This document shows, in pieces, positions 8,618 to 54,478 of a stretch of DNA of 54,769 bases (position 1 is the first letter of the stretch; every line of letters begins with the position of its first letter). The position numbers were made by a program, and so were the translations under genes. Under the pieces are notes generated by a model. The model was not told the origin of the DNA. It searched no databases and worked only from the letters and a program-made list of their open reading frames with translations. The stretch is taken from positions 1-54,769 of the IMG/VR virus record IMGVR_UViG_3300005532_000251; one strand, written 5' to 3'. This DNA is from a virus. Taxonomy: Duplodnaviria; Caudoviricetes.

Positions 8618-9035
8618 CCTGCTCTTTGCCGCACGCGCCTACACCGAGCTGATCGTCGTGCTCTTCGCGATCTGTATTGGCTGGCGCTATGCACAGCGCC
8701 GGAAAGTCCTCACCTGGTGGACGCTGTGGATCGGCGTGATCTTAGTTCTTGCGCTTGGCATTGAGCACATGCCGCCCATACCTCTACGGGGCTACCTTGT
8801 TGGCGCGGCCATCGTCCTTTTCGTGGTCTTTCTTCCCGGCTGGCTACGCGATGGAGGAGAGCGCGATCTGCGCCCGCGCTCCCTGTCCTGGGAGACCGAG
8901 CAGTTCATCGGCTTCATCGTGACAGATCGCGAGCGCGATGGATGCCGCATTATCCAGATCGACCTCGTTGACAATGATGGCAATACTCGCGTCGTCTATC
9001 GATGCGACAAAGAGGAAGCGAGGCCGAAGGAATGA
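8604..9035 (+). CDS. Membrane protein (about 3 TM)
   Basis: GAGG RBS; hydrophobic N-terminal half. Confidence 0.6.
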   Translation: MDSNSLLFAARAYTELIVVLFAICIGWRYAQRRKVLTWWTLWIGVILVLALGIEHMPPIPLRGYLVGAAIVLFVVFLPGWLRDGGERDLRPRSLSWETEQFIGFIVTDRERDGCRIIQIDLVDNDGNTRVVYRCDKEEARPKE

Positions 9036-9208
9036 TGCTTGTCGGCGCAGCAGCGCTCGCACTCTTGCCCAGCGCTGCATTCTTCAGCTATGGCCTGTGG
9101 CGCTATAGTGGTCGCCGTCTTCCCTGGCGCGATCTTGGCTTAGCTCTGCTCTGGGCAGCGTTCGCGGCGATATTTCTCTGGTTCGCAGTGCAGGTCCTTT
9201 TGCATTGA
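9032..9208 (+). CDS. Small 2-TM membrane protein
   Basis: ATGA overlap with the upstream stop; two hydrophobic helices. Confidence 0.55.
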   Translation: MMLVGAAALALLPSAAFFSYGLWRYSGRRLPWRDLGLALLWAAFAAIFLWFAVQVLLH

Positions 9209-9240
9209 CGCGTGGATGGCGCGCGCGGTATACTACGCGC

Positions 9241-9316
9241 ATCCATATCATTTCTCCGTTCTATCGCCGAAGCCGCTGCGTCTGCCGGGGGGAGCGCAGC
9301 GGCTTCGGCGTTTTTT
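9241..9316 (+). ncRNA. Candidate small RNA (promoter, 24-nt leader, 16-bp hairpin, U-tract)
   Basis: TTGACG(9205)-18-TATACT(9229); stem 9265-9280/9295-9310 followed by T6; no ORF inside. Confidence 0.6.
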
Positions 9317-9327
9317 ATGGTTGGACA

Positions 9328-9374
9328 TCGAGGAGCGATGCTCCTCGACAAGAGGCAACACCATCTGCTATACT
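9328..9374 (+). promoter_or_regulatory. Promoter and operator of the XRE regulator
   Basis: Inverted repeat TCGAGGAGC-GAT-GCTCCTCGA overlaps TCGACA-18-(TGC)TATACT. Confidence 0.5.
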
Positions 9375-9439
9375 TTCATTGATAAAAATGAATGAACCGT
9401 CTTCCAGGCAAGCAGAGTTGTTGCGGAGGGAGCGATAAC

Positions 9440-12689: not shown

Positions 12690-12770
12690 TTGACAAACCA
12701 CAAACCATCGTGTATCATTAGTGTAATTAACGAGGCATAGATCCCGGAGGACTATGCCTTTTTTTGTTTT
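12690..12770 (+). promoter_or_regulatory. Strong promoter followed at once by a terminator (pR'/tR'-like late control)
   Basis: TTGACA(12690)-17-TATCAT(12713); stem AGGCATAG..CTATGCCT (12733-12759) plus long T run; lies upstream of the terminase operon. Confidence 0.65.
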
Positions 12771-12814
12771 TAGCTGAGTTTTTCTACGACCTCACTGTGA
12801 AAGGCGGGGCCTCC

Positions 12815-15723: not shown

Positions 15724-15911
15724 CAGGCGGCAGGCGCTATCCATTCACGCATAGCAAGCAGAATGAGATCCGCACCTATGGCCTGCGCTATCACGCTGGA
15801 GGCTGGATTTACTTCGAGTATCAGCGCCGGCGCATTCGTCGCATATGGCGTAAGCGCGCCAGACGCGAGGCGAAACGCTCTCTAGAGGAGCAATGCTATG
15901 CCGGGCGATGA
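15720..15911 (+). CDS. Small basic hypothetical protein
   Basis: ATGA overlap with the terL stop; Arg-rich. Confidence 0.5.
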   Translation: MTGGRRYPFTHSKQNEIRTYGLRYHAGGWIYFEYQRRRIRRIWRKRARREAKRSLEEQCYAGR

Positions 15912-16089
15912 TACCTTCGTTTCCTCCGCTATCGATGCCGCGATCAGGACCCTCGTCGAGCTGGAGGCCACGCTTTCCGTCGCCAATATCCGCAAAATCC
16001 TCCTCATCGCCGGCGTTGGCGCTGTGATTTCGTCGAAAGCCATTGATGAGCGATTATCCCGGTATTTAGCACAGCATAAGGAGCAATAG
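15898..16089 (+). CDS. Small hypothetical protein
   Basis: GAGGAG RBS. Confidence 0.55.
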   Translation: MPGDDTFVSSAIDAAIRTLVELEATLSVANIRKILLIAGVGAVISSKAIDERLSRYLAQHKEQ

Positions 16090-16091
16090 CC

Positions 16092-17165
16092 ATGACAGTC
16101 TATGGCGTCACCGTCGGCTCAAAAGGGCCGCAACTCAACCCGCAAGTCATCACAGCGATGCGGGATCTTGGTCTTACCTCGCTGCGCTTTAATCTGTCGG
16201 CCACAGTGCTGACCGATGGCCGTGGCAGCTATAACTGGGCTGTCGCTGATAACTTTGTGCAGCAGTGTAACGAAGCCGGCATCGAAGCCTACTATGTGCT
16301 CAAGGATTTGCCGGCGGCCTGGCTTGACAGTCAAGGATTACCGACGCCTGCCGGGATGCTCGCGTATGCTTCGGCGGTAGCGAGCCGCTATAACGGCAAG
16401 ACTGGACATGGCAAGATCGGCGTCCTTGAGGTCGGCAATGAGGCGTACAGCCTCAGCTCGACGTTTTACGGCGCGCAGCTCGCCGCTGCGATGAACGCAG
16501 TGTACCAGCCTATCAAGAATATCAATGCTGATCTCCTGGTTGTCCCTGGCGCGCTCTTGCAGCGCAATACGCAGACCATTGAGAATGGCACGGCGACGCT
16601 TTTACAGCAGGCTGCGCACAGCATGGATGCGCTGAATTGCCATACCTACTTCGGTATCCCTGGAAACGGCCATATCGATCCCTCAGATGGCAGTCTCCCA
16701 AATATTCCCAGCTTCCCACAGTACATCGAAGCGATGCAGGGTGTGCTGGCCCAGCACACCATAAGCCTGCCGATCTGGGTGACAGAGTTTGGCTGGGCCA
16801 CCACGGCGAACTTTGGCCGCGCATTGCGCACCGTCGTCACTCCTGAACTGCAATGGCAATATGAGAAGTATTGCTACGACCAGGCGGCAAAGCTCGGAGT
16901 TCAACGCATGTACGTCTTTACCCTCGGCTTTGCGAACCCGCCTGACGGCACATCGCTGGTCCAGGCAGGCGGCGCGAAGACGGTGGCCTACAACGGTCTC
17001 AAGGCATACATTGCCGGCCAGCCGAGTAGCGACCCACCGCCGAATAATGGGAACGACGGCGGCAATGGTGGGAACAGTGGAGGCGGATCAGGGCCAACGA
17101 GCGCGCAGATCGCGCAGGCGGTATCGCTGCTCGATGAGGCGAAGCAGTTGCTGAGTGGTTCCTAG
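16092..17165 (+). CDS. Clan GH-A glycoside hydrolase (GH5/GH39-like)
   Basis: Acid/base EVGNE, DALNCHTY, nucleophile PIWVTEFGW; Gly/Asn linker and short C-terminal helix. Confidence 0.75.
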   Translation: MTVYGVTVGSKGPQLNPQVITAMRDLGLTSLRFNLSATVLTDGRGSYNWAVADNFVQQCNEAGIEAYYVLKDLPAAWLDSQGLPTPAGMLAYASAVASRYNGKTGHGKIGVLEVGNEAYSLSSTFYGAQLAAAMNAVYQPIKNINADLLVVPGALLQRNTQTIENGTATLLQQAAHSMDALNCHTYFGIPGNGHIDPSDGSLPNIPSFPQYIEAMQGVLAQHTISLPIWVTEFGWATTANFGRALRTVVTPELQWQYEKYCYDQAAKLGVQRMYVFTLGFANPPDGTSLVQAGGAKTVAYNGLKAYIAGQPSSDPPPNNGNDGGNGGNSGGGSGPTSAQIAQAVSLLDEAKQLLSGS

Positions 17166-18121
17166 ATCCCGAACATTTCTTCGAGTTTGTCGCCGTAGGG
17201 GTTCTCAGCGCTGTGGAGCTGCTTCATATACATGGAGGTGGTTTTGAGGTCATTGTGACCGAGGCGTTCACCGATTTCAGAGAGTGAGGCGCCGGCCTTC
17301 TCCATATTGATCGCAAACGAGTGGCGCAGAACATGACCGCGCGGATCGTCCAGATACCTGTCGCAGATATCGGAGATGGACTGTGATGAGAGCGGCCCGC
17401 CATAGTTGTTGTGCGAAAGCGAAATCCAAATCGGCGAATCATTCTCGATGGAAAGCAAGGCTTCACCATAGACGGCGTGAAGGTATTCCATGAGTGCAGT
17501 TGCAGTCTTCGGCTTCAAGACATCGTGCATCACTTTGCCGCCCTTACAGCGGGGCCATGTAACCAGGATGCGCCGCGCTGAAATTGAGAGATGTCCATAG
17601 CGCATCGCCGCCAGCTCTCCGATGCGTCGCCCGGTCGTAAATCCAACGGAAAGCAGCGCGAAGTCACGCATGCCAGCAAGAGTTCGGCGATCAATCAAGG
17701 CAAGTCGCGCTGCAATCTCCTGGCTTGTCATGGGGAGGGCCGCATGCACGCTCACGCGTGGGCGACGCTCTGCAAGGTCAATAGGGTTCACGGCGACGAT
17801 CCTCCCGGTTCTGGCATAGCGATAGAAGCTACTGAGTATCGCCAGGCGCTGATTATGCGTTGCTGGCGCAATAGCGCGGCCATCGCGGCCTATCGATGCC
17901 CATGTCTCAGCAAATCGCGCTACCAGTGTAGCATCACTGTCGAGATCGCGTCCAGCTCGTTGCAACGCGGCGCGAAACTCTCGAATGGTCCATTCATAGG
18001 CTGTCTTCGTCTTCTCACTGCCAGAACGTCGCGTTTTCGTGGCAAGCCAGGTGGTAATGCACTCTTCAAGCGCACGAAGCCGGTCTGGAACAGCCTGGAG
18101 CATCCCGGAATACTCATCCAT
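17162..18121 (-). CDS. Tyrosine recombinase (XerC/D-like)
   Basis: Catalytic set TTGRRIGE (R), KGGK (K), HVLRH, LGH, TTSMY; N-terminal core-binding domain and no arm-binding domain. Confidence 0.93.
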   Translation of the reverse strand: MDEYSGMLQAVPDRLRALEECITTWLATKTRRSGSEKTKTAYEWTIREFRAALQRAGRDLDSDATLVARFAETWASIGRDGRAIAPATHNQRLAILSSFYRYARTGRIVAVNPIDLAERRPRVSVHAALPMTSQEIAARLALIDRRTLAGMRDFALLSVGFTTGRRIGELAAMRYGHLSISARRILVTWPRCKGGKVMHDVLKPKTATALMEYLHAVYGEALLSIENDSPIWISLSHNNYGGPLSSQSISDICDRYLDDPRGHVLRHSFAINMEKAGASLSEIGERLGHNDLKTTSMYMKQLHSAENPYGDKLEEMFGI

Positions 18122-18167
18122 CTAGGCACCTGTCCCAAGTACAACTAATCACCGTTCTTCCAAGTTC

Positions 18168-18196
18168 AGCTTAATTCAACACTGTCAATGTGTCAA
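18168..18196 (-). promoter_or_regulatory. Recombinase promoter
   Basis: TTGACA-17-TAAGCT on the minus strand, with a second TTGACA inside the spacer. Confidence 0.55.
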
Positions 18197-18226
18197 GCAA
18201 GCAGGCGCCATTTTCAAGGAGATCCG

Positions 18227-18439
18227 ATGAAAACAACGCTCATCACAAAGCTCGCGACGAATGTCACCGACTTTTCGCCGGCGCAAATCGAAGCCTACAA
18301 AGCCTTCATGCTCGCCAGCTTCGCCGATACCTTCAAGATCAGCTTCGAGGTCCTTCACGAAGACGAGGAGGCCCGCGCAACAGCGCTGCTCGACCAGGTG
18401 CGCGCCGAGTTCAAAGAGCATGACGAGGCCAGCCAATGA
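18227..18439 (+). CDS. Small hypothetical protein
   Basis: AAGGAG RBS. Confidence 0.6.
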   Translation: MKTTLITKLATNVTDFSPAQIEAYKAFMLASFADTFKISFEVLHEDEEARATALLDQVRAEFKEHDEASQ

Positions 18440-18618
18440 AGACGAGGATGACGCACAGGATCGTCGTGTCAACCGACATGTCAACCTGGAGCTATGAACA
18501 GATCGCCGAATATCAGCGCCGATGGAAAGAGATCATCAAGGATCTCGATTATGACGTAGAGGTCACGACGACTATCGAAGAGCATACGCCTGCGCTGCGT
18601 GCGGAGGATGAGCTATGA
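18436..18618 (+). CDS. Small hypothetical protein
   Basis: ATGA coupling at both ends. Confidence 0.55.
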   Translation: MKTRMTHRIVVSTDMSTWSYEQIAEYQRRWKEIIKDLDYDVEVTTTIEEHTPALRAEDEL

Positions 18619-19127
18619 ATGCCGAGACCTCCTCTGATCTCAATGGGAATAAATCTAACGTCAAAACCGAAACGATGCCGCCGAAAATACTGATTACGCC
18701 GCGCAAACACGATGCGCCCGTTGTCCTGAACCGCGCACAGCGCCGCGCGCTCGCGAAGTACATTCGAGGCCGCGCCGCGCCGATGCGCAGATTACAGCGA
18801 GAGACCCGTGCGCAGACGACGTGCCAGCGCTGCGGCAAGATTGTCATTCTGGCAGCACAGACGCTGTTTGAAGTCGGCCTCAAGGACCGCATCGAGCGCT
18901 GTCAGTGCCCGGCAGCAGATCGGCATGCCTGCGCGATGTGTGGCGCTGTTTTCATGGCGTCACCGAAAGAATATCGCCGAACCAATGTGTGTGCACAGTG
19001 CGCTGAGCAGATCCGCGTACAGCGAGAACGCGAGGCGAAGAGCACAAGCGCTGCGCAAGAACGTTGGTATGCGCAGCGCTTGTGGGACGATGAGCAGCAC
19101 CGGCTTGCGCAGGAGAACAGGCAGTGA
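18615..19127 (+). CDS. Zinc-finger protein
   Basis: CQRC, CQC, CAMC and CAQC motifs. Confidence 0.6.
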   Translation: MNAETSSDLNGNKSNVKTETMPPKILITPRKHDAPVVLNRAQRRALAKYIRGRAAPMRRLQRETRAQTTCQRCGKIVILAAQTLFEVGLKDRIERCQCPAADRHACAMCGAVFMASPKEYRRTNVCAQCAEQIRVQREREAKSTSAAQERWYAQRLWDDEQHRLAQENRQ

Positions 19128-19519
19128 AGTACCGCGATCCTGTGACCGACGATGAGCTGTCGCGCGGCGAGTACATATCGTGGATGGTGCAATCGATCAT
19201 ACGGCGCTGGACCTTCCTCGGCGTCGTGACGCTGCTTACGCTCCTCGCCTGGTCAACGGTGTTCTGGCTGTCGCAGAGCGGCGCGGTGCTCACCTGGTGG
19301 AATCTGTGCGCGTCGTACCTCGCCATTGTGATCGAGTCTATCGTCGGCCTGGCGATGTTCGGCCAGACCAGGCGCGACGCCGTTATTTTGCGCCGCATTG
19401 CAAGAATGGATAACGTCAACGCAGCGCAGCTCGATAAGCTGGTCGCGCTGGAGGCCGCAACTTCGCAGCAGACCGCGATGCTCGTTGCGCTCTTAGAGAA
19501 GCATGAAGCGCAGGGATAA
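19124..19519 (+). CDS. Membrane protein (DUF1003-like)
   Basis: Two TM helices with W.F, NL..S..A and Q.RRD pattern, then a coiled coil. Confidence 0.55.
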   Translation: MKYRDPVTDDELSRGEYISWMVQSIIRRWTFLGVVTLLTLLAWSTVFWLSQSGAVLTWWNLCASYLAIVIESIVGLAMFGQTRRDAVILRRIARMDNVNAAQLDKLVALEAATSQQTAMLVALLEKHEAQG

Positions 19520-19590
19520 GCGCGGAGAGGCTGCGCTATTCAAGGAAAGACGCTGATTCTTTATTAGCGACGTGGCTTATTAAAGACTCG

Positions 19591-19908
19591 TTAAGATTCG
19601 AGGCTGGCAAGGTAGAGGGCGAGTTCCTGATAAATGGCATTGATATCGAGGTATGAGAGCGCTTCTGGATTGGTGATAGTGGTATCAATGCGCGCCGTAA
19701 AGCCGCACGGGAGAGGCATGAATTGCGCTGTCACGATGACTCCGAGATCTGGATAGTGCTCATCGAACCATCTCTGGATAACGCGAATGCGAATCGGCAG
19801 CCCTGCTTCGAGAACCTCGCGTGCACGCCGATACGCCTGTCGATATTCATGCTCATCGGTGAGGGCCTCGCCCGCCCGCGCGACTTGCAGCGCCTGCTCC
19901 TCGCTCAT
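19591..19908 (-). CDS. Hypothetical protein (antisense moron)
   Basis: GGGAG RBS on the minus strand; AT-rich upstream region. Confidence 0.55.
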   Translation of the reverse strand: MSEEQALQVARAGEALTDEHEYRQAYRRAREVLEAGLPIRIRVIQRWFDEHYPDLGVIVTAQFMPLPCGFTARIDTTITNPEALSYLDINAIYQELALYLASLES

Positions 19909-19977
19909 TCGCCGACTCCCTTGTAATCTTTGTGGTTATATTATCACATCCTTTTTAACAGCACCGGAGGACGCCGC

Positions 19978-26482: not shown

Positions 26483-28177
26483 ATGGAGACCTCCTTGAGT
26501 AACACCCCGAAACTCCCTCAGAAGTACGATGCGCTCATTGAACGGGTGCGCGGCCTCGATCCACAGCTTGCAACGCAGATGGTCGATGCCTTTGCGCCAG
26601 TTGTCAATGCCAGCATCGCGCAAACGCCGATCACTGAGCATCGGCAAGCCGTCGGCGACATCTATCGCAATACCACGCCGCCCAACGTGAGCGATCCGAA
26701 ATCCGATCTCTCCCAGGCAACCATCGATCTTGTCAAGAATAGCCAGGCCGATATTACCCGCGCCGGAACCAACCTCGCAACGGGCTTCCTGGGCTACGAT
26801 TTGCAGGCGCCGGCAGCGATGCTCGTTCCCTACCTCACGCCGCTCCTCAACATGACACCGCGTGAGCAGGGCGTGGGCATCGACACCCACCACTGGAAAG
26901 CGGTCACGGACCTCTTCGGCGGTAACGGTCCACAGAGCGTCATCGGCGCCGTTGATGACGGTGGCAATCCGCAGTTCGTGTCGCGCAACGTCGTACCGAT
27001 GTCGAACACGTTTCAGACCATCGGCCTCCAGGATAGCCTGACCTTCCAGGCCGAATGGCGCGGTCAAAGCTTCGAAGGCGATCTGCGCGCACTGCTCACG
27101 GCGCAGCTCCTCTACGCCTTGAAGCTCGTCGAGGAAAACTGGCTCATCAATATGAGCGATTACCTCTGGGCGCCGCCCTCGCCACTGGCTACCGCTGCCT
27201 CCACCGGCGGCACGATTGCCGCCGGCTCGTACTGGATCCAGGTCACAGCGACGAACGCGAACGGCGAGTCTCTGGCCTCGAAGATCATCGGCCCGATTGC
27301 GACGAGTGGCAGCACCTCCAGCATTGCCCTCACGCTCTTTACCGTGCCGAATGCCGCCGGCTACAACGTCTATGTTGGCTCTGGCGCCACGCAACCCGCG
27401 AACGGCGCCATGTGGAAGCAGGTCGCAGGCAATTTCCAGGGCGGCGCAACCCCCGTGCAGCCGGCAACGCCAACCACTGGCAACTTCGCCGCGACATTGA
27501 CCAGCCTTACCTCTAGCGGTGCCAATCCTCCCGCGACGAACACTGCCGCCGTCGCCCTCGGCGCATCCTCGCAGCCGCTGACCTTCCAGGGCGTACAGGC
27601 GATGATCTACGCGAATGCCGGCAACATCAACAATATCGTGACCGGCACGGGCGCCCTGAAGGCGCTGATCTCGCAGCCAGCAGCATCCACTGGCTACCTC
27701 GCACTCAGCGATATTCAGAACCAGTTCTACAACATGTTCACTGCGTCGCGCGCCGATCCTCGCTACATCTTCGTCAGCCCGCTCGACGCCATCACCATCA
27801 CCAACCTCGTCAGCAATGCCGGCAATACGCGCGTCGTGGTCACAGCGGATAACCTCAACGAGCAGAACAACCTCATCGCCGGCTACCGGGTGGCGAAGAT
27901 CCTCAACGAAGTCACCAATAACGTCGCGACGATCATCTCGCTGCCCTACCTCGCACAAGGCACGATGATCTTTGGCAGCCTGGAATTTCCCTATCCCGTC
28001 GCTGGCTACAATAAGCCTCCGTATCGCGTGATTTACAACCGCGATTACTACGGCGTCGATTATCCACCGACGCAGCAGAACCCGACAAAATGGGGCTTTG
28101 GAGATTTTGTGGATGAAACGCTCTGTATCGAGTTCCTCGGTGGCTGGGGAATTTTAAACGGCGTCGTGTATCATTGA
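26483..28177 (+). CDS. Major capsid protein with an inserted Ig/FN3-like domain
   Basis: Position after the protease; YDL.APA..L.P..TPL.N..PR capsid-type motif; insertion GGT.AAGSY..QVTA.NANGES..YNVYVG. Confidence 0.85.
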   Translation: METSLSNTPKLPQKYDALIERVRGLDPQLATQMVDAFAPVVNASIAQTPITEHRQAVGDIYRNTTPPNVSDPKSDLSQATIDLVKNSQADITRAGTNLATGFLGYDLQAPAAMLVPYLTPLLNMTPREQGVGIDTHHWKAVTDLFGGNGPQSVIGAVDDGGNPQFVSRNVVPMSNTFQTIGLQDSLTFQAEWRGQSFEGDLRALLTAQLLYALKLVEENWLINMSDYLWAPPSPLATAASTGGTIAAGSYWIQVTATNANGESLASKIIGPIATSGSTSSIALTLFTVPNAAGYNVYVGSGATQPANGAMWKQVAGNFQGGATPVQPATPTTGNFAATLTSLTSSGANPPATNTAAVALGASSQPLTFQGVQAMIYANAGNINNIVTGTGALKALISQPAASTGYLALSDIQNQFYNMFTASRADPRYIFVSPLDAITITNLVSNAGNTRVVVTADNLNEQNNLIAGYRVAKILNEVTNNVATIISLPYLAQGTMIFGSLEFPYPVAGYNKPPYRVIYNRDYYGVDYPPTQQNPTKWGFGDFVDETLCIEFLGGWGILNGVVYH

Positions 28178-48277: not shown

Positions 48278-48739
48278 TTACTTCCACTCGTAGCGCCGCC
48301 TGGTCCTGCGCTGGCTTTCTTTGATCTTGCGTAGATCAAGGATCTGCTCAGAGATTTCAGCGAGCGCGAGGCTCCCGGTTGCGAATTCTCGATCTGCGTG
48401 GCCTCGCAGCCATGCTATCGGCTCGCATTGGAGCTTGAGTCCCATGTGACCGATGAAGGCGCGGTTTCCCTCGAACTCGCCAATGATCTCGTTGGTGCCA
48501 ACGATAATCTTTGCGGATTTGCCGGCAAATTCCGCGAGCGACATGCCGAGAGTTCCGAGGCGCACGCGAGGATTATCGGCGAGCAGATAGTAGTAGCGCC
48601 GGATGCCTTCGTGCTTTGGGGGATGCATGGGCTTGTGCGTCTTTCTCAGATAGTCGTCGATGACGCGCTGGTCAGGCTCGCCTGCGTCCTCGAAGGCGGC
48701 GACAAATGCCACGTCAATCGTGGTAATTTTCCAGATCAT
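48278..48739 (-). CDS. Hypothetical protein
   Basis: GGAG RBS; coupled to the upstream gene. Confidence 0.6.
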   Translation of the reverse strand: MIWKITTIDVAFVAAFEDAGEPDQRVIDDYLRKTHKPMHPPKHEGIRRYYYLLADNPRVRLGTLGMSLAEFAGKSAKIIVGTNEIIGEFEGNRAFIGHMGLKLQCEPIAWLRGHADREFATGSLALAEISEQILDLRKIKESQRRTRRRYEWK

Positions 48740-48741
48740 GC

Positions 48742-48987
48742 TTAGTTCTCCGCCTTTTCCCAGTACTCCAGCATCTCATCATCGAGCGCATGGTCCTCTT
48801 GCCAGCGCTTATTGAGTCGCAGGCACTTGCCATAGGCACTTTGCCGGTTGAGGTAGGTTTTACGCGGTCTTAGTTCTTCCCAGGTGTTGCTGTGATTGTC
48901 AACCATTTCAACGACCTCATAGACATCGCCGCCTACTCCGATATTCTTGACGCGGTAGGGGCCAAATACCTTTTGCTTTGCTGGCAT
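48742..48987 (-). CDS. Small hypothetical protein
   Basis: AAGGAG RBS; has its own promoter. Confidence 0.65.
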   Translation of the reverse strand: MPAKQKVFGPYRVKNIGVGGDVYEVVEMVDNHSNTWEELRPRKTYLNRQSAYGKCLRLNKRWQEDHALDDEMLEYWEKAEN

Positions 48988-49024
48988 AGCTTTTCTCCTT
49001 AATCAATATCAATGCCATCTTACT

Positions 49025-49103
49025 GACATCACTTTGATGTCTTCCACAGCTAAAGAATACCATGACATCACTTTGATGTCAATCCCTTACACCACGAATT
49101 TCC
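49025..49103 (-). promoter_or_regulatory. Promoter with twin palindromic operators
   Basis: TTGACA-17-TATTCT; GACATCACTTTGATGTC at 49025-49041 and 49064-49080. Confidence 0.8.
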
Positions 49104-49112
49104 TGAATAAGC

Positions 49113-49150
49113 AAAGAACCGCCCCGGATCGCATCGAGACCGGGGCGGTT
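49113..49150 (-). terminator. Intrinsic terminator
   Basis: AACCGCCCCGG/CCGGGGCGGTT stem. Confidence 0.6.
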
Positions 49151-49190
49151 GTGTGTCTTCAACCCATTCCATTTTGTAATGGGTTGAATT

Positions 49191-49565
49191 TCAGCGCCGC
49201 AAGGACCTGACGACATCTCTGATCCGGCGCAGTTCCGCCTCGACTTCTTTGCGCTGCCTCCCTGCGTACTCAGAGAGATCAATACCTTCGAGCGCAGACA
49301 GCGCCAGATCGCAGGCGGTACGCTGTGCCGCACGGATCTCAGCCTGGATCTCACGAGCACGCCTGGCACGCTTCTCATTCTTCGCGCGCAATGCTTCCTC
49401 AGAAAGCTGCGCCTGGCGCAGCCGATCATTGACCAGCTTCGCGCCGGCAGGATCGAGGGCGCGGCATTCCTTGCACCAGGGCATGATAAAGCCGGATCGG
49501 CCCTGAAAGAGCACAAGGAATTTCTCCTCGCCACAGCGCTCACATTTCTTTGTTTTCATATTCAA
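49191..49565 (-). CDS. Zinc-finger protein
   Basis: KKCERCGEEK...WCKEC then a coiled coil. Confidence 0.6.
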   Translation of the reverse strand: MNMKTKKCERCGEEKFLVLFQGRSGFIMPWCKECRALDPAGAKLVNDRLRQAQLSEEALRAKNEKRARRAREIQAEIRAAQRTACDLALSALEGIDLSEYAGRQRKEVEAELRRIRDVVRSLRR

Positions 49566-49789
49566 TATCCTGCATCGTAGAGCCAGGCTTTCAGAATCTC
49601 ATTCACTGCTTCATCGACGCCCTGAAAACCTCGCTCTTCTATGCATTCGTTGAGCCGGCGTAAGGTCAGCGGCTGGACCTTGCAGCAAAGTTCCGCGCTC
49701 AAAGGATCAGCCTCATGCGCGGCGAGGATTGAGGCGGCCAGGAGATATTCTTTGAGGCCGGGATCTTCATTGAGAGATTCGTCATTCAT
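49562..49789 (-). CDS. Small protein, possible RHH
   Basis: GAGG RBS; strand-helix-helix-like C-terminus. Confidence 0.5.
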   Translation of the reverse strand: MNDESLNEDPGLKEYLLAASILAAHEADPLSAELCCKVQPLTLRRLNECIEERGFQGVDEAVNEILKAWLYDAGY

Positions 49790-49796
49790 TATGGCC

Positions 49797-50045
49797 TCAC
49801 AAGATCATCGCTTTTTGATCTTCTGATCGTCTTCCATAGACCTGCTTGATCGCAAAGAGTACCGCATCTTGAAGCTCCGCGCGTGTTGGGAAAGGTACGC
49901 CCTGCTGCATGAAGAAATCATACAGCAGGTCTACATCCGGCTTTTTGATGCGGATGACGACACTCTCATGCTCTCCTGGCTTCTCGGCATTTTTATTGCC
50001 AGGGGGCGCGCCTGGCTTGCGATCAGAGGAAATGCTACGAGCCAC
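49797..50045 (-). CDS. Small DNA-binding-like protein
   Basis: GAPPGNKNAEK motif followed by an RHH-like segment. Confidence 0.55.
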   Translation of the reverse strand: MARSISSDRKPGAPPGNKNAEKPGEHESVVIRIKKPDVDLLYDFFMQQGVPFPTRAELQDAVLFAIKQVYGRRSEDQKAMIL

Positions 50046-50244
50046 GCTTCAACTCCTGTTCTACGACAGCATGGATAGCCGCATTCATCTCCGGGGGCAA
50101 TTCGTCACCGATCACCCCCGCTTCGCGTGCGAGGCGCACACCGGCCCCCGTCGCCATCCATTTGATATCTTCCTCATCCATCCCCTCTTCGCGCGCCAGG
50201 GCAATTTCGCCCTGGATGGCCTTGACCAACTCTGGATTAAGCAT
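50035..50244 (-). CDS. Small hypothetical protein
   Basis: AAGGAGG RBS. Confidence 0.6.
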   Translation of the reverse strand: MLNPELVKAIQGEIALAREEGMDEEDIKWMATGAGVRLAREAGVIGDELPPEMNAAIHAVVEQELKRGS

Positions 50245-50258
50245 TGATTCCCTCCTTT

Positions 50259-50882
50259 TTACCGTCGGATATACTGATCTCCCTGCTCATCACAGAGAAA
50301 TAATGATGCCGGGGACATGCGATTAGAAAGCGTGGCGCGAAGCAGTCGCCGTGCGCTGTCCAGGAGGAATGCATAATCTTCGCATTCCTCGTCATGGGGA
50401 TGGGCTGCATGCAACGCCTGCGCAAGTTGCTCGGCGGTAAAGATCGTCCCGGCAGGCATGGCCCGGACGGTTTCCGTCATTGTCTGGTCAGCGTCTACAC
50501 CGCGCTGATTGCGATAAAAAACGCTCATCACTTCGATGTGGGCGCTCTGCTGCGCATGTGCCTCTTCAACGACTGATTCTGCCTGCTGCTCGCTCGTTTC
50601 TGTCTGAGGGGCTGGTGGCTCCGGCGCAGGCCGGGCGACGATCACAATACGCTGACCAGCATCGGGACCGCGCATCTTTTCGTAGCGAGCCAGTTCAGCT
50701 TCGGCTTTGGCCTGATCCGTGGTCTCATAGCCGTTCCACCAGCATTGGCGATCTTGGTACCAGTACTGCACTGAAAAGAAGGTATCGGGCGTATCAGGCC
50801 CGAAGAAACTCAGATCACCAGCCTGATAGGCATTGGGCGCGCGGTTATTCAATTCGTTGAGGGCGATAACTTCGTAGGTCAT
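50259..50882 (-). CDS. Hypothetical early protein
   Basis: AAGGAG RBS before ATG 50882. Confidence 0.65.
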   Translation of the reverse strand: MTYEVIALNELNNRAPNAYQAGDLSFFGPDTPDTFFSVQYWYQDRQCWWNGYETTDQAKAEAELARYEKMRGPDAGQRIVIVARPAPEPPAPQTETSEQQAESVVEEAHAQQSAHIEVMSVFYRNQRGVDADQTMTETVRAMPAGTIFTAEQLAQALHAAHPHDEECEDYAFLLDSARRLLRATLSNRMSPASLFLCDEQGDQYIRR

Positions 50883-50930
50883 TGTTGTTCTCCTTACTTT
50901 TCTCTGTCCCGATTTCTCAGGTACAATTGA

Positions 50931-50980
50931 ATTGTAACACAACAATTCGATGCTGTCAACCCCTTGTGCCACGAATTTCC
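50931..50980 (-). promoter_or_regulatory. Leftward promoter with conserved upstream element
   Basis: TTGACA-17-TACAAT; GGAAATTCGTGG 9 nt upstream of the -35. Confidence 0.75.
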
Positions 50981-51119: not shown

Positions 51120-52088
51120 ATGCAATTCATCGCATCGCCGAACTACTGGGCAGGCCGGGCGGGGTATCGCCCGCGTTGGCTCATTGTGCATGGTACTGCC
51201 GGCGGCAGCTCCGCCGCAGGTATCGCCGCCTGGTTCGCGAATCCAGAGAGCCAGGTCAGCGCTCACTACGTTGTGGACCAGGCCGGCACGGTGATCTGCT
51301 GCGTCGAGGAGCAGGACACCGCCTGGTCCAACGGTATCATCACCGGGGCGCCGGCGACCTTGCCGTTCCGCACTGCCAGCGATGGCATCCACCGGGACGC
51401 CTGGTGGAGCGATGCCGTGAACCCCAACTATCTCACGATCTCCATTGAGCACGTCAAGCCCAGCACGGATAACAGCGATGCTTTGACGCAGGCGCAGCAG
51501 GCGGCGAGCTTTGCGCTTATCAAAGCGATCTGCGAGCGCTGGGGCATTCCAAAGCGATTCGCAGATAGCAATGGGGGCATCACCGGCCACTTTAGCATCG
51601 ATCCTCTGAACAGATCGCACTGCCCAGGGCCGTATCCGTGGTCGGCATTGTGGGCTTATTTACAACGAGGGGGAAGTATGGTTCCGCAAGGATGGAGCGA
51701 TGACGGCACGACACTCACTGCTCCCAATGGCGTCAAAGTCATCAAGGGATTCCGCGATGTTGTGCTCTTCAGCGCCTGGGATCCGCAAAATTATCCGCTG
51801 GAGGCGGAGCGCGGCGCCGATCCTTTGGAGGTCGGTAATCCATCGCTTGGCGCCGGGACACGTCAGACCTTCCGCTGGAGTCGCTTAGAATGGACGCCCT
51901 CACGCGGCGTCTTTCAGTGCTGGCTTGGTCAGGAGGCGCTGGCATTGGAAGCGAAGCTAGCGCAGCTCCAGCCGGCGCCAATCACCGCTGCGCAGGCGAG
52001 CATCGTCATCGCCGATCTTAAAGACATTGTAGAGAGTGCCGAGGGTGCCTTGCAGCAGCTCGGCGCCGGCACATCGTCATCATCGTAG
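51120..52088 (+). CDS. Endolysin, N-acetylmuramoyl-L-alanine amidase (Amidase_2)
   Basis: IVHGTAG, SAHYVV, ISIEH and GH..IDP..R..CPG Zn-ligand motifs; C-terminal VPQGW.DDG..LTAPNG domain. Confidence 0.92.
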   Translation: MQFIASPNYWAGRAGYRPRWLIVHGTAGGSSAAGIAAWFANPESQVSAHYVVDQAGTVICCVEEQDTAWSNGIITGAPATLPFRTASDGIHRDAWWSDAVNPNYLTISIEHVKPSTDNSDALTQAQQAASFALIKAICERWGIPKRFADSNGGITGHFSIDPLNRSHCPGPYPWSALWAYLQRGGSMVPQGWSDDGTTLTAPNGVKVIKGFRDVVLFSAWDPQNYPLEAERGADPLEVGNPSLGAGTRQTFRWSRLEWTPSRGVFQCWLGQEALALEAKLAQLQPAPITAAQASIVIADLKDIVESAEGALQQLGAGTSSSS

Positions 52089-52152: not shown

Positions 52153-52491
52153 ATGACAGACACTGCGCTTACCATCCCTGCCAGAACGTCCACCTCTGGT
52201 GAAATTACGCCGCAGGGCATCGTACCTGTGCCGAGTATCGGCGATCAGGTACTCTTTGTGCTCGACACCGGCCACTCTGCCGGAGAATCGCGCCCGGCTA
52301 TCGTCACCAGGACCTTTGCGGAAAAGACGGGCATGGTGAATCTCCAGGTCCTCACCGATGCCCTCAACGATTTCTCAGCGGGTGATCCCGGCTGCACAGG
52401 GATCATGTGGAAGACAGCGGTGCCCTACAGCGAAACCGGCGAGCGCGGCACCTGGCGCTATGGTACGCCATCCTATACCATCACTGGATAG
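52153..52491 (+). CDS. Conserved small phage protein (PSIG..V..PAIVT..VNL.V..W family)
   Basis: Motif pattern; a paralog lies at 53449..53709. Confidence 0.65.
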   Translation: MTDTALTIPARTSTSGEITPQGIVPVPSIGDQVLFVLDTGHSAGESRPAIVTRTFAEKTGMVNLQVLTDALNDFSAGDPGCTGIMWKTAVPYSETGERGTWRYGTPSYTITG

Positions 52492-52495
52492 CGCC

Positions 52496-52960
52496 ATGAC
52501 GGTTCCACAGCCCTTCACATTGCTCCTGCCAGCACTGGCCTCAATGATCGCCGGGTGGCTCAAGGATGATAATTTGCCTGCCTGGGCTAACTTCGCGATC
52601 ATCGTTGCGCTCTTCGTCGTCTCAGTGGCTGCGTGCATCCTCGTCGGCGGCGGCCTCAGTGGCAACCCTGGCGCCGACATCAGCCTGATTATCGCCGAGT
52701 GCGCCGCCGTCTTTGGCTTGCTGAAGCCGGTGATGGACAGAGCAGCGGCGACAGTGCCCTCGCCGATAGCAGCGCTCGCCGAGAGCCGCGCAGAGGCAGA
52801 GGCGGTCTTCGCGGCGCCGATCACGCCGGTAGCCGTGCGCGCCAGTGCTGCACCGATCAAAGAGCAAAGCCCGGTGAGGCCGCAGATCACGTTGCCGGCA
52901 AAGCCGCCACCGCCAGAGTCTCCACCACCAGCGCCAGGCGGGGACGGCTCGGCCTCGTAG
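52496..52960 (+). CDS. Holin (putative)
   Basis: 2-3 TM helices, Pro-rich tail, next to the endolysin. Confidence 0.65.
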   Translation: MTVPQPFTLLLPALASMIAGWLKDDNLPAWANFAIIVALFVVSVAACILVGGGLSGNPGADISLIIAECAAVFGLLKPVMDRAAATVPSPIAALAESRAEAEAVFAAPITPVAVRASAAPIKEQSPVRPQITLPAKPPPPESPPPAPGGDGSAS

Positions 52961-52984
52961 CCTCTGCCTCGCCTTACGCGCTGC

Positions 52985-53433
52985 TTGACATGGCGAGGCG
53001 ACGACTGCTATGATGGCGGTGTTTCCGAGACGGGAAGCGCGGGCCTCGACGATGCAACACGTCGAGGCCCGCGCTGCATTTTGGCACATTGACAGCAGTG
53101 CTAGCATTGATATCGATACCTCTACCATCTGGCGCAGGCGATCACGGCCATTCTACCGCCAAATTATCATGGCCGTGATCGTTGTCCTCTAAGATTGACA
53201 GCGCGGCCCACATCGCGTATTCTGTGAGCACGGGAAAAGTCAGGTATTTCAGTTGAGTACAGACACGATATGGCGCCTATCGACCAGCCCTCGATAGGCG
53301 CCATATCGTGTCTTGACGGAGCCTCTCTCGCATGCTACGATAGGGCTGCGATCCCATCGCGACTGCAATGTCATGCCAGGCGGCACCCAACACACAAAGA
53401 GGCCCTTGAAGCGCGGATTGCTTCAAGGGCCTC
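52985..53433 (+). ncRNA. Tandem array of four promoter-leader-hairpin units (candidate sRNAs)
   Basis: -35 boxes at 52985, 53089, 53195 and 53313, each followed by a -10 box (weak in unit 2) and a 13-23 bp perfect stem. Confidence 0.6.
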
Positions 53434-53448
53434 GATGATTCTCAACGC

Positions 53449-53709
53449 TCACACGATGATCGGCTCATCGCCCGCAAGGCGGGATTGATATGATGGCAGA
53501 TGCCACGTATCCGCCTTCGCTTTCGCCGAATACGCAACGCTTTTGACAACGCGCACGCCGTAGCCAGCGCTGACCAGGACATGGAGCTGGACGACGCCGC
53601 GCTCTTTGTCCTCAATGCCAGAGATGATGGCGGCGTACTCACGGCCTACCATGTCCACGTAGATCACGGTGCGGCCAAGCGCGGCGCCGGGGATCATCGT
53701 TGTTGTCAT
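53449..53709 (-). CDS. Paralog of the 52153..52491 family
   Basis: LGRTVIYV..YAAII..V.LHVL..VAYS...TW pattern. Confidence 0.6.
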   Translation of the reverse strand: MTTTMIPGAALGRTVIYVDMVGREYAAIISGIEDKERGVVQLHVLVSAGYGVRVVKSVAYSAKAKADTWHLPSYQSRLAGDEPIIV

Positions 53710-54056
53710 AGCGCACGCATCCTCTCTGTTTCCCTCGTTTCAACGAGGGCCGCCCGCGCGGCAGCGAGGGCCTGGGCGATCTTCGGATCGGCGGCGATCT
53801 CGTCGCAACTAAGCGACTGCACGGCATTCATGAGCGTCATCGCCTGCATGGATTCTGTGTTGTGCCGGCTGTCTTGCAGCGCGCGCACGAGGACGAGGAT
53901 ATGCTGTGGCATCGGCGCCTCGCTCCGAGGCCGTGCATGGAAATACTCCATGATAGCCATGAAGAGAGCGCGCAGGGCCTCGCTTGTCGCTGGAGGCGTC
54001 TGCTCTCGTGTGTTGCGCAGCGCGGCCAGGCGCGGCGGTGTGGTCGTCATGGTCAT
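53706..54056 (-). CDS. Hypothetical protein
   Basis: AGGAGG RBS; ATGA coupling. Confidence 0.6.
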   Translation of the reverse strand: MTMTTTPPRLAALRNTREQTPPATSEALRALFMAIMEYFHARPRSEAPMPQHILVLVRALQDSRHNTESMQAMTLMNAVQSLSCDEIAADPKIAQALAAARAALVETRETERMRAL

Positions 54057-54478
54057 CGCAGCGCCTCCTGGTTCACAATGAGTTCGCCAGTTGTCCGGGC
54101 CAGCGCGCGATCTGTGGCGCGATCAACAAGTGCTGCGTCGCATTGATCGATCATGAGATTATGCGTACAGCGCGGCACGAGCACCGCGCCGAGTTCTTCG
54201 GCGAGACCAACGCTCACCTCGAAGAGACCGCAGGCTACGATGTCATCGGCATCCCCACAGCGCATGATGATAGTCACCGTTTCGCCATCGTTGGCGGTAA
54301 GGTCAAGCTCCGAGTCCCCGGTGACCAACTCATGGCAAACCGGACCATCAATGTTGCGCTCGTGGATCACCGTGATGATGGTGTTCTCATCACTGAGAGA
54401 ACTGTGCAGATGCACAGAGGCGCTGTAGCTCGTCTGCTCCGTATAGAGCACACTGAGCCAGGCTAATTTCGTCGTCAT
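54053..54478 (-). CDS. Hypothetical protein
   Basis: AAGGGGG RBS; coupled operon. Confidence 0.6.
   Translation of the reverse strand: MTTKLAWLSVLYTEQTSYSASVHLHSSLSDENTIITVIHERNIDGPVCHELVTGDSELDLTANDGETVTIIMRCGDADDIVACGLFEVSVGLAEELGAVLVPRCTHNLMIDQCDAALVDRATDRALARTTGELIVNQEALR

Follow-up and report, generated by a model that had tools for sequence, protein, structure and literature searches.

The window analyzed here (the whole 54,769-bp stretch, a provirus record with a completeness estimate of 66%) contains an ORF-free spacer between two convergent operons, in which four perfect hairpins (H1–H4) alternate with promoter-like sites (P1–P4). The hairpins, the promoters, and their alternation are real and lie beyond chance, and a unit of the P4-H4 type is present at the junction of one relative. 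With slightly less than even confidence, the spacer is interpreted as three or four small, unrelated, independently promoted non-coding RNA units (U1–U4), or "RNA morons", of which U4 would resemble lambda oop. We infer transcription, termination, and stability of U1–U4, as well as any regulatory role. The first-pass annotation had described this region as a modular cassette of four like RNA units. Its non-coding, promoter-then-hairpin layout was borne out; the equivalence of the four units was not, because the -10 box of U2 is poor and H1 and H4 appear to double as operon terminators.

Genomic setting and organization of the spacer

The gene layout of the plus strand was read from PHROG and Pfam searches (Table 1). 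The endolysin homologues carry the names Ktedonobacteria or Chloroflexi (P0002, 81% identical; P0003, 77% identical), so the host is a Ktedonobacteria-type soil bacterium. Beyond the spacer, the leftward genes m76, m141, m116, and m86 run from past the window end down to 53449. The last of them, m86, is a distant paralogue of the middle ORF of the lysis cassette (both hit phrog_2293; pairwise identity 28%, E 5e-5). For the function of the leftward operon, a Pfam search of its proteins in the window and in G155, a genome with a related phage (see below), gave zero matches, and a tRNA/tmRNA search of the whole window detected none.

Table 1. Positions of genes, promoters, and hairpins in the window and of the junction elements in the relative G155.
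Feature	Position	Strand	Description
ParB-like partition protein	5094	+	PHROG/Pfam
HTH regulator	9392	+	PHROG/Pfam
Large terminase (TerL)	14275	+	PHROG/Pfam
Portal	21900	+	PHROG/Pfam
Head protease and possible capsid protein		+	PHROG/Pfam
Tape measure	38890	+	PHROG/Pfam
Tail genes	up to 48221	+	PHROG/Pfam
Gene block between tail genes and lysis cassette	48278-50972	-	
Endolysin (Amidase_2), first lysis-cassette gene	51120..52088	+	Pfam PF01510, E 1.1e-22; PHROG endolysin/amidase families
ORF, middle position of lysis cassette	52153-52491	+	Hits phrog_2293
Holin-like membrane protein, final gene of rightward operon	52496..52960	+	N-terminal half hydrophobic; 34% identical homologue at the equivalent position in G155
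ORF-free spacer	52961-53448		488 nt; between rightward lysis cassette and leftward operon (convergent)
P1	52985..53014	+	TTGACA-18-(TGc)TATGAT; 11/12, with TG; between holin stop codon and H1
H1	53036-51/53060-75	+	16 bp, loop 8; tail GCATTTTGG; -40.7 kcal/mol, z -6.5; predicted end of U1 (~62 nt)
P2	53089..53117	+	TTGACA at 53089-94; weak extended -10 TGa-TATCGA; doubtful promoter; not reported by scans
H2	53139-51/53169-81	+	13 bp, loop 17; tail TTGTCCTC; z -4.6
P3	53195..53223	+	TTGACA-17-TATTCT; 10/12
H3	53261-83/53291-313	none assigned	23 bp, loop 7; -47.7 kcal/mol, z -7.8
P4	53313..53341	+	TTGACGG-N14-aTGcTACGAT (TTGACG-17-TACGAT); 9/12, with TG
H4	53399-412/53420-33	none assigned	14 bp, loop 7; minus-strand tail TTTGTGTGTT; z -4.7
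m86, last leftward-operon gene	53449..53709	-	Hits phrog_2293
m116 and m141, leftward operon	53706..54478	-	Homologues behind G155 spacer (m116, E 6e-7)
G155 spacer, element 1: terminator		+	10 bp including one G.U pair; tail TCTTTGTG
G155 spacer, element 2: promoter	L176 1955-1983	+	TTGACGG-N14-ATGCTACTAT
G155 spacer, element 3: hairpin	60 nt past promoter		16-19 bp; A5 before, TTGTTGTTCGTTGTCTT after (bidirectional terminator)

The promoter scan reported P1, P3, and P4, in agreement with the promoters proposed earlier for U1, U3, and U4. The -10 box of U2 had been called weak, and P2 indeed failed the scan, having at best TG-n-TATCGA. In 5000 dinucleotide shuffles of the spacer, at least three sites with at least 9 of 12 matches arose with P = 0.0006, at least two sites with at least 10 of 12 matches were never obtained (0/5000), and at least four TTGAC boxes appeared with P = 0.0014, so the -35 boxes are not chance occurrences, a possibility that the first-pass annotation had set against its own reading. 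The minus strand of the spacer contains neither promoter-like sites nor GTCAA. Three of the 17 plus-strand TTGACA sequences of the whole window fall in the spacer, which represents 0.9% of its length, and the strict order P-H-P-H-P-H-P-H is one of the 70 possible arrangements of four and four elements.

Motifs matching the consensus of P1–P4, often with TGn, were also found 45–60 nt before AAGGAG and ATG at real gene starts in the window (P50959, P49082, and P38846, each on the minus strand). Near-identical promoters (TTGACAAACC...CATCGTGTAyyAT) stand upstream of apparent tRNA genes, judged by eye, in three other genomes of the class (L188, L191, and L194). Because of these window gene starts, the promoters before apparent tRNAs, and a conserved promoter at 12690 (P12690), the TTGACA/TATAAT(+TG) consensus is taken to apply to the host group. 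The distance from the -10 box to the hairpin is 21, 21, 37, and 57 nt in units 1–4, respectively, and unit starts are 104–121 bp apart. Assuming about 7 nt between the -10 box and the start site, the predicted leaders are ~14, 14, 31, and 51 nt long, and the predicted RNAs ~60–100 nt.

The four stems were recovered where they had originally been annotated, with 100% complementary arms. They make up four of the 15 perfect hairpins (stem of at least 11 bp, loop of 3–20 nt) in the 54.8-kb window; across 170 Ktedonobacteria genome and metagenome loci (1.46 Mb), the density of perfect hairpins was 0.16 per kb. The fold of the whole spacer reached -229 kcal/mol versus -169 +/- 6 kcal/mol in dinucleotide shuffles (z = -10.1), and each of the predicted unit RNAs U1–U4 also folded better than its dinucleotide shuffles, with the z values listed for H1–H4 in Table 1. 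All 66 stem pairs of H1–H4 are Watson-Crick, with no G.U pair, and pairing does not distinguish RNA-level from DNA-level selection here. H3 is longer than the other hairpins of this phage, and its 3' end overlaps the -35 box of P4 by 1 nt. Long perfect hairpins are frequent in these genomes, 45 of the 202 distinct ones having at least 20 bp.

The 8-nt tails of H1, H2, H3, and H4 contain 4/3, 4/1, 1/2, and 3/5 T (plus/minus strand), respectively. The clear terminators of the phage, at 9265, 12594, and 48232, have 5–7 T directly at the stem. Since these are perfect stems of 13–16 bp too, H1–H4 are plausible as the ordinary terminator type of the phage. H1 is the first strong hairpin past the holin stop codon and thus the probable terminator of the lysis operon, and H2 is perhaps the end of U2 or a second terminator of that operon. 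The terminator scan identified H4 on the minus strand, where its T-tail lies, and H4 is thus first of all the likely terminator of the leftward operon. Compared with the 5–7 T of the clear terminators, the plus-strand tails of H3 and H4 are absent or weak, so termination there in the rightward direction is uncertain. The alternative of stacked terminators, which the first-pass annotation had itself raised, accordingly holds in part, for H1 and H4 as terminators of the flanking operons.

Related phages and homology searches

A search of genomes of the class retrieved one genome, G155, with homologues of the holin-like protein and m141 in convergent orientation. In G155, a phage whose gene order is collinear with that of the window is present twice, as identical copies spaced 40,187 bp apart, the amino-acid identity to the window being 72% for TerL, 68% for the portal, and 66% for the protein of ORF 26483-28177. 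The gene order at its junction is endolysin, holin, a 236-nt spacer (L176 1873-2108), m116-like, and m141-like. The G155 spacer contains a terminator, a promoter, and a second hairpin (Table 1). The -35 heptamer and extended -10 of this promoter are identical to those of P4 in the window (TTGACGG-N14-ATGCTACGAT); the spacer, leader, and hairpin sequences have otherwise diverged, and only the promoter hexamers are common to both. In shuffles of the G155 spacer, a promoter-like site with TG occurred in 1.2% of cases and a site of any kind in 11%. The window and G155 therefore share the layout of one promoter-to-hairpin unit that faces the putative terminator of the leftward operon. Relative to G155, the window has two or three extra units and an extra gene, m86.

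In L071, which is more distantly related (33% identity of the holin-like protein), the gap at the junction is only 47 nt long and contains just one bidirectional hairpin, so the promoter-hairpin units are dispensable. The junction thus measures 47 nt in L071, 236 nt in G155, and 488 nt in the window. Given the single unit of G155 and the single hairpin of L071, it is probably a variable accretion zone that has grown by addition, like moron sites. A census found 17 promoter-to-hairpin units in 1.56 Mb versus ~7.9 expected under independent placement; four of the 17 lie in the window, three of these in the spacer, and three in a row were seen nowhere else. A chromosomal convergent gap in L095 contains three stacked hairpins and no promoters, which means that hairpin stacks alone are not unique to the spacer.

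Scans of viral contigs with single proteins (m86, holin, endolysin, and P0003) and alignment scans with A3 and A4 gave no syntenic relative, and endolysin-anchored loci had hardly any flanking genes in common with the window. Several candidates were rejected: the hairpin cluster of L028/L154 lies inside coding sequence; in L162, two promoter-hairpin hits lie in promoter regions of minus-strand genes, one of the hairpins being a minus-strand terminator; and the other m141 hits (L179, L180, and L181) have a different gene context.

No RNA family was recovered for U1–U4 by the Rfam comparison that had been suggested as a check. The search of the window against Rfam 15 gave 0 matches at the gathering score, the E-value mode over 52800-53600 gave only sub-threshold miRNA-hairpin noise, and 0 matches were found in L176 and L184. 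Direct repeats of at least 16 nt and iterons are absent from the spacer, and U1–U4 are mutually unrelated in sequence. Second copies of, or complementary matches to, the spacer in the rest of the window were only short and at chance level. A DNA search of the phage collection gave no match, the search of 169 class genomes gave hits at chance level only, and nhmmer found nothing significant in ~180 retrieved loci (one hit, E 0.41). Because the hairpins have no other copy in the window and only chance-level hits in the 169 class genomes, they are not REP-like or MITE-like repeats, and the REP-like explanation considered in the first-pass annotation can be set aside.

The DNA contigs that cover the spacer (X7, X8, and X9, and partly X6; four sequencing runs) are identical to the window there, so X6–X9 provide no covariation, and several contigs of the sequencing runs break at the spacer hairpins. 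Among the sequencing runs listed as containing the locus, none was an RNA run. With X7, X8, and X9 identical and the G155 spacer sharing promoter hexamers only, the covariation proposed as a further check did not materialize. The leaders and the H2 loop were also compared with the 5' regions of 75 phage genes, and the predicted pairing was no better than that of shuffles (fraction as good 0.11–0.94).

Predicted RNAs and alternative explanations

In the favoured interpretation, the convergence spacer would be an accretion zone without essential functions, placed much like the lambda b region or moron sites, that has collected self-contained ORF-less transcription units. Host RNA polymerase of the sigma-70 type would start at P1, P3, and P4; weak starts at P2 may occur as well. 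A phage factor would not be needed, so that P1, P3, and P4 would fire in the lysogen too. Each transcript may stop at, or be trimmed to, the next perfect hairpin, and the predicted products are three or four unrelated non-coding RNAs with a single-stranded 5' leader and a protective 3' stem. H1, with H2 as a back-up, could double as the terminator of the lysis operon, and U1 would accordingly be an RNA of the 3'-UTR type that has a promoter to itself. U4 would be an oop-like convergent RNA, because H4 probably also ends the leftward operon, and through its 3' stem U4 would be complementary to the leftward mRNA at the 3' end. The likeliest working parts seem to be the leaders, which may pair with host or phage RNAs. 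A more detailed version is unlikely: three or four units would have been added one at a time, as RNA morons, where the late operon ends; the lysogen would express them, and they would have trans-acting roles towards host RNAs or proteins, whether as regulators, as sponges, or as anti-defence decoys. U4, an oop-like partner to the leftward operon, would in this version have kept its layout in diverged phages.

Several other explanations were weighed. Less probable than the set of RNA units, and not very likely in itself, is a transcriptional insulator, in which the hairpins would form a terminator stack separating the convergent operons (H1 and H2 for the plus strand, H4 for the minus strand, and H3 as an extra barrier), the promoters would be secondary, at most loading polymerases that collide or block read-through, and the short RNAs would be by-products. 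The position and tail orientation of H1 (+), H2 (+), and H4 (-) do resemble the tandem or bidirectional intrinsic terminators of convergent operons. H1 is where a lysis-operon terminator would be expected, as the first strong hairpin beyond the holin stop codon, the relatives carry a terminator at these very places, and a promoterless stack of three hairpins exists in L095. The conserved promoter-proximal late terminator downstream of P12690 (see below) further suggests antiterminated late transcription, which, if real, would make strong stops useful at the end of the late operon and lends the insulator some weight. Unlike in terminator stacks, however, a near-consensus promoter stands ahead of each of three spacer hairpins, all on one strand, and insulation leaves these promoters unexplained; moreover, H3 has no U-tract and no T-tail on either strand, and L071 manages with one hairpin and G155 with two. 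The units would instead be leftovers if they were promoter/terminator pairs of accessory genes whose ORFs had been deleted, maybe still transcribed and neutral. The variable length and content of the junction among relatives, the lack of sequence relationship between units, and the absence of conservation and of predicted targets are consistent with such decay. Nevertheless, it is judged unlikely, as the stems are perfect and the promoters near-consensus with no decay visible, the unit lengths are tight and without recognizable ORF remnants, and P4-type promoter elements have been retained in G155 amid diverged surroundings.

The all-Watson-Crick stems would also suit palindromes acting as DNA, as protein-binding or recombination/replication sites (an operator, an att-like core, or an origin hairpin), with the promoters as part of a control region. 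This applies above all to H3, the longest hairpin type of the phage, which lacks a T-tail and touches the -35 box of P4. Such a role is very unlikely, since arms of 13–23 nt with spacers of 7–17 nt are unlike known operators, iterons and direct repeats are absent, no other copy such as an att partner exists in the window, the integrase is 35 kb away, and perfect hairpins of such length occur often in these genomes. Finally, the units might encode very short peptides, for example in a frame of 46–60 aa at 53010-53192 or one of 72 aa at 53270-53488; open frames are present, and in one of them GAGG lies ~11 nt upstream of the start codon. We consider this extremely unlikely. The frames cross the perfect hairpins, the start codon at 53010 falls within the P1 -10 box, most frames lack a gene-like GC pattern across codon positions, and no Pfam or PHROG match was found at E<=0.1 (the best was one PHROG match, E 0.33), in line with the earlier statement that the spacer has no credible ORF.

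Comparison with known systems and promoter–terminator units elsewhere in the window

Stand-alone sRNA genes of bacteria and prophages can be recognized from an orphan promoter and a terminator where no ORF is present. The anti-sRNAs AsxR and AgvB of EHEC prophages are short and located at moron sites (Tree et al. 2014, PMC4104026). The sRNAs at moron sites of lambdoid prophages are 51–60 nt long, with variable 5' ends, and in EHEC prophages they occur as convergent pairs within a spacer of this type (PMC4104026). The Pas sRNAs are similar (bioRxiv 10.64898/2026.05.13.724894). The spacer units are like these genes in having their own sigma-70-type promoter, a predicted length of 50–100 nt, a 3' stem-loop, and a variable 5' part, and, like the EHEC prophage sRNAs, they occupy an accessory position of the moron type, beside the late genes of a temperate phage. 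In contrast to the EHEC anti-sRNAs, which share a conserved 3' region, U1–U4 show no such kinship. They further differ from those systems in that the host is a Chloroflexota bacterium and that they are predicted RNAs, and from standard sRNA genes in their weak or absent U-tracts and the lack of a sequence or structure match in Rfam.

Lambda OOP RNA is a short antisense RNA that starts at pO and converges on the 3' end of cII. Like OOP, U4 and its G155 counterpart are predicted short RNAs with their own promoter that would meet an operon head-on at its 3' end and would share its terminator hairpin. The T content of the H4 tails is higher on the minus strand (5/8 versus 3/8), and the G155 counterpart is clearly T-rich on both sides. 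Unlike OOP, the predicted U4 covers only the 3' untranslated hairpin and not coding sequence, because H4 ends at 53433, 15 nt before the m86 stop codon (53449-51); an overlap with the coding sequence of m86 would require read-through of H4.

The spacer units do not form a new class. They add a new, lineage-specific case to a kind of element already known, orphan promoter–terminator units or candidate phage sRNAs at accessory junctions. In a literature search, part of which covered the host group, no paper dealt with how Chloroflexota phages regulate their genes or with RNAs that they encode. If transcribed, the units would be the first candidate phage sRNAs for Chloroflexota, and the spacer would be a clear case of non-coding accessory units piling up at a variable junction in the manner of protein-coding morons. 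Its practical value is modest; at this size, the spacer can be cloned and tested.

Two further promoter–terminator units were observed in the window. P9205 (TTGACG-18-TATACT) has a -35 box that overlaps the stop codon ending a small membrane ORF, and this promoter runs into a 16-bp hairpin (9265-9310) with T6, just ahead of P9345 and the HTH regulator gene. P12690 (TTGACA-17-TATCAT) is followed by a short hairpin and T7GT5 within ~45 nt, directly upstream of the genes leading into the terminase, and resembles the promoters standing before apparent tRNA genes (tRNAs read by eye). The unit has been kept in G155 with its promoter, its TAACGAGG leader, and its U-run, and the stem is altered from GGCAUAG/CUAUGCC in the window to GGUAUGGCC/GGCCAUGCC.

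In lambda, the pR'-tR' region (6S RNA) consists of a late promoter and a promoter-proximal terminator that is read through under the control of Q. P12690 is similar in being strong and constitutive-looking and in firing into a terminator within ~45 nt upstream of packaging and structural genes. This analogy suggests late control by antitermination at P12690, and no Q-like protein was identified. Unlike P12690 and pR'-tR', the spacer units face no downstream genes, only the antisense strand of the leftward operon. The P12690 unit may be the more useful lead on late-gene timing in these phages.

Promoter-hairpin units and a shared upstream box

Feature coordinates are listed in the table below. 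A short hairpin with a T7GT5 tail lies within ~45 nt of a late promoter, and the resulting unit (12690-12775) is placed directly upstream of the genes running into the terminase. The unit is kept, with an altered stem, in the collinear phage of the Ktedonobacteria-class genome G155 (L184 14325-14400). The promoter, including its spacer, is also similar to promoters preceding apparent tRNA genes, read by eye, in three loci of other members of the class (L188, L191, and L194). A late promoter firing into a promoter-proximal terminator has a layout similar to lambda pR'-tR', and by this analogy the unit is a candidate for antitermination control.

In the orphan unit at 9205, the -35 element overlaps the stop codon of the small membrane-protein ORF 9034-9206; the hairpin and T6 tract of the unit are followed by a second promoter at 9345 and an HTH regulator gene at 9392. 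Upstream of the predicted leftward promoters P50959 and P49082, the same box (GGAAATTCGTGG) was found, and the spacer of P24572 contains the related TTTCGTGGAAATT. This box may be a regulator binding site.

Coordinates of the features detected in the window
Feature	Position	Strand	Description
Orphan promoter-hairpin unit	9205-9316		TTGACG-18-TATACT, then 16-bp hairpin and T6
Late promoter and terminator unit	12690-12775		TTGACA-17-TATCAT, then short hairpin and T7GT5
Tyrosine integrase	17162-18121	minus	inside 15724-19930
Box GGAAATTCGTGG	~50969-50980 and 49092-49103	minus	9 nt upstream of the -35 of P50959 and P49082
phrog_2293 paralogue pair	52153-52491 and 53449-53709	plus and minus, respectively	28% identity, phrog_2293 match in both

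Stacked hairpins and contig breaks

Three perfect hairpins (13, 28, and 11 bp) were found stacked in a chromosomal convergent gap of a Ktedonobacteria genome (L095 11223-11441), and a promoter-like site was absent from this gap. Long perfect hairpins are common in the loci surveyed, with 45 of 202 reaching at least 20 bp. At 52965-52999 and at the perfect hairpins H1 and H3 of the ORF-free spacer, contigs from public metagenomes are broken or folded back where inverted repeats occur; one joint falls at 52965/52999, and contigs end at 52973, 53060, 53068, and 53274. These breaks and fold-backs are an assembly effect caused by the palindromes, not biology.

Comparison with the G155 phage

The related phage is present in G155 (C1:5062000-5121999; L183-L185) in two identical copies 40,187 bp apart. 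Since a homologue of ORF 1-1941 of the window comes after its leftward operon, the right end of the window probably runs on into its left end, the record being circularly permuted or cut. From the large terminase gene to the homologue of ORF 19930, the window spans ~4.2 kb (15724-19930), and the corresponding G155 interval is just ~1.1 kb; the integrase-bearing stretch looks like a module inserted amid the packaging/head region. The two phrog_2293 ORFs are distant paralogues that bracket the holin gene plus spacer in inverted orientation. A tblastn search of the G155 region located neither of them, and the ORF map of G155 leaves no room for either.
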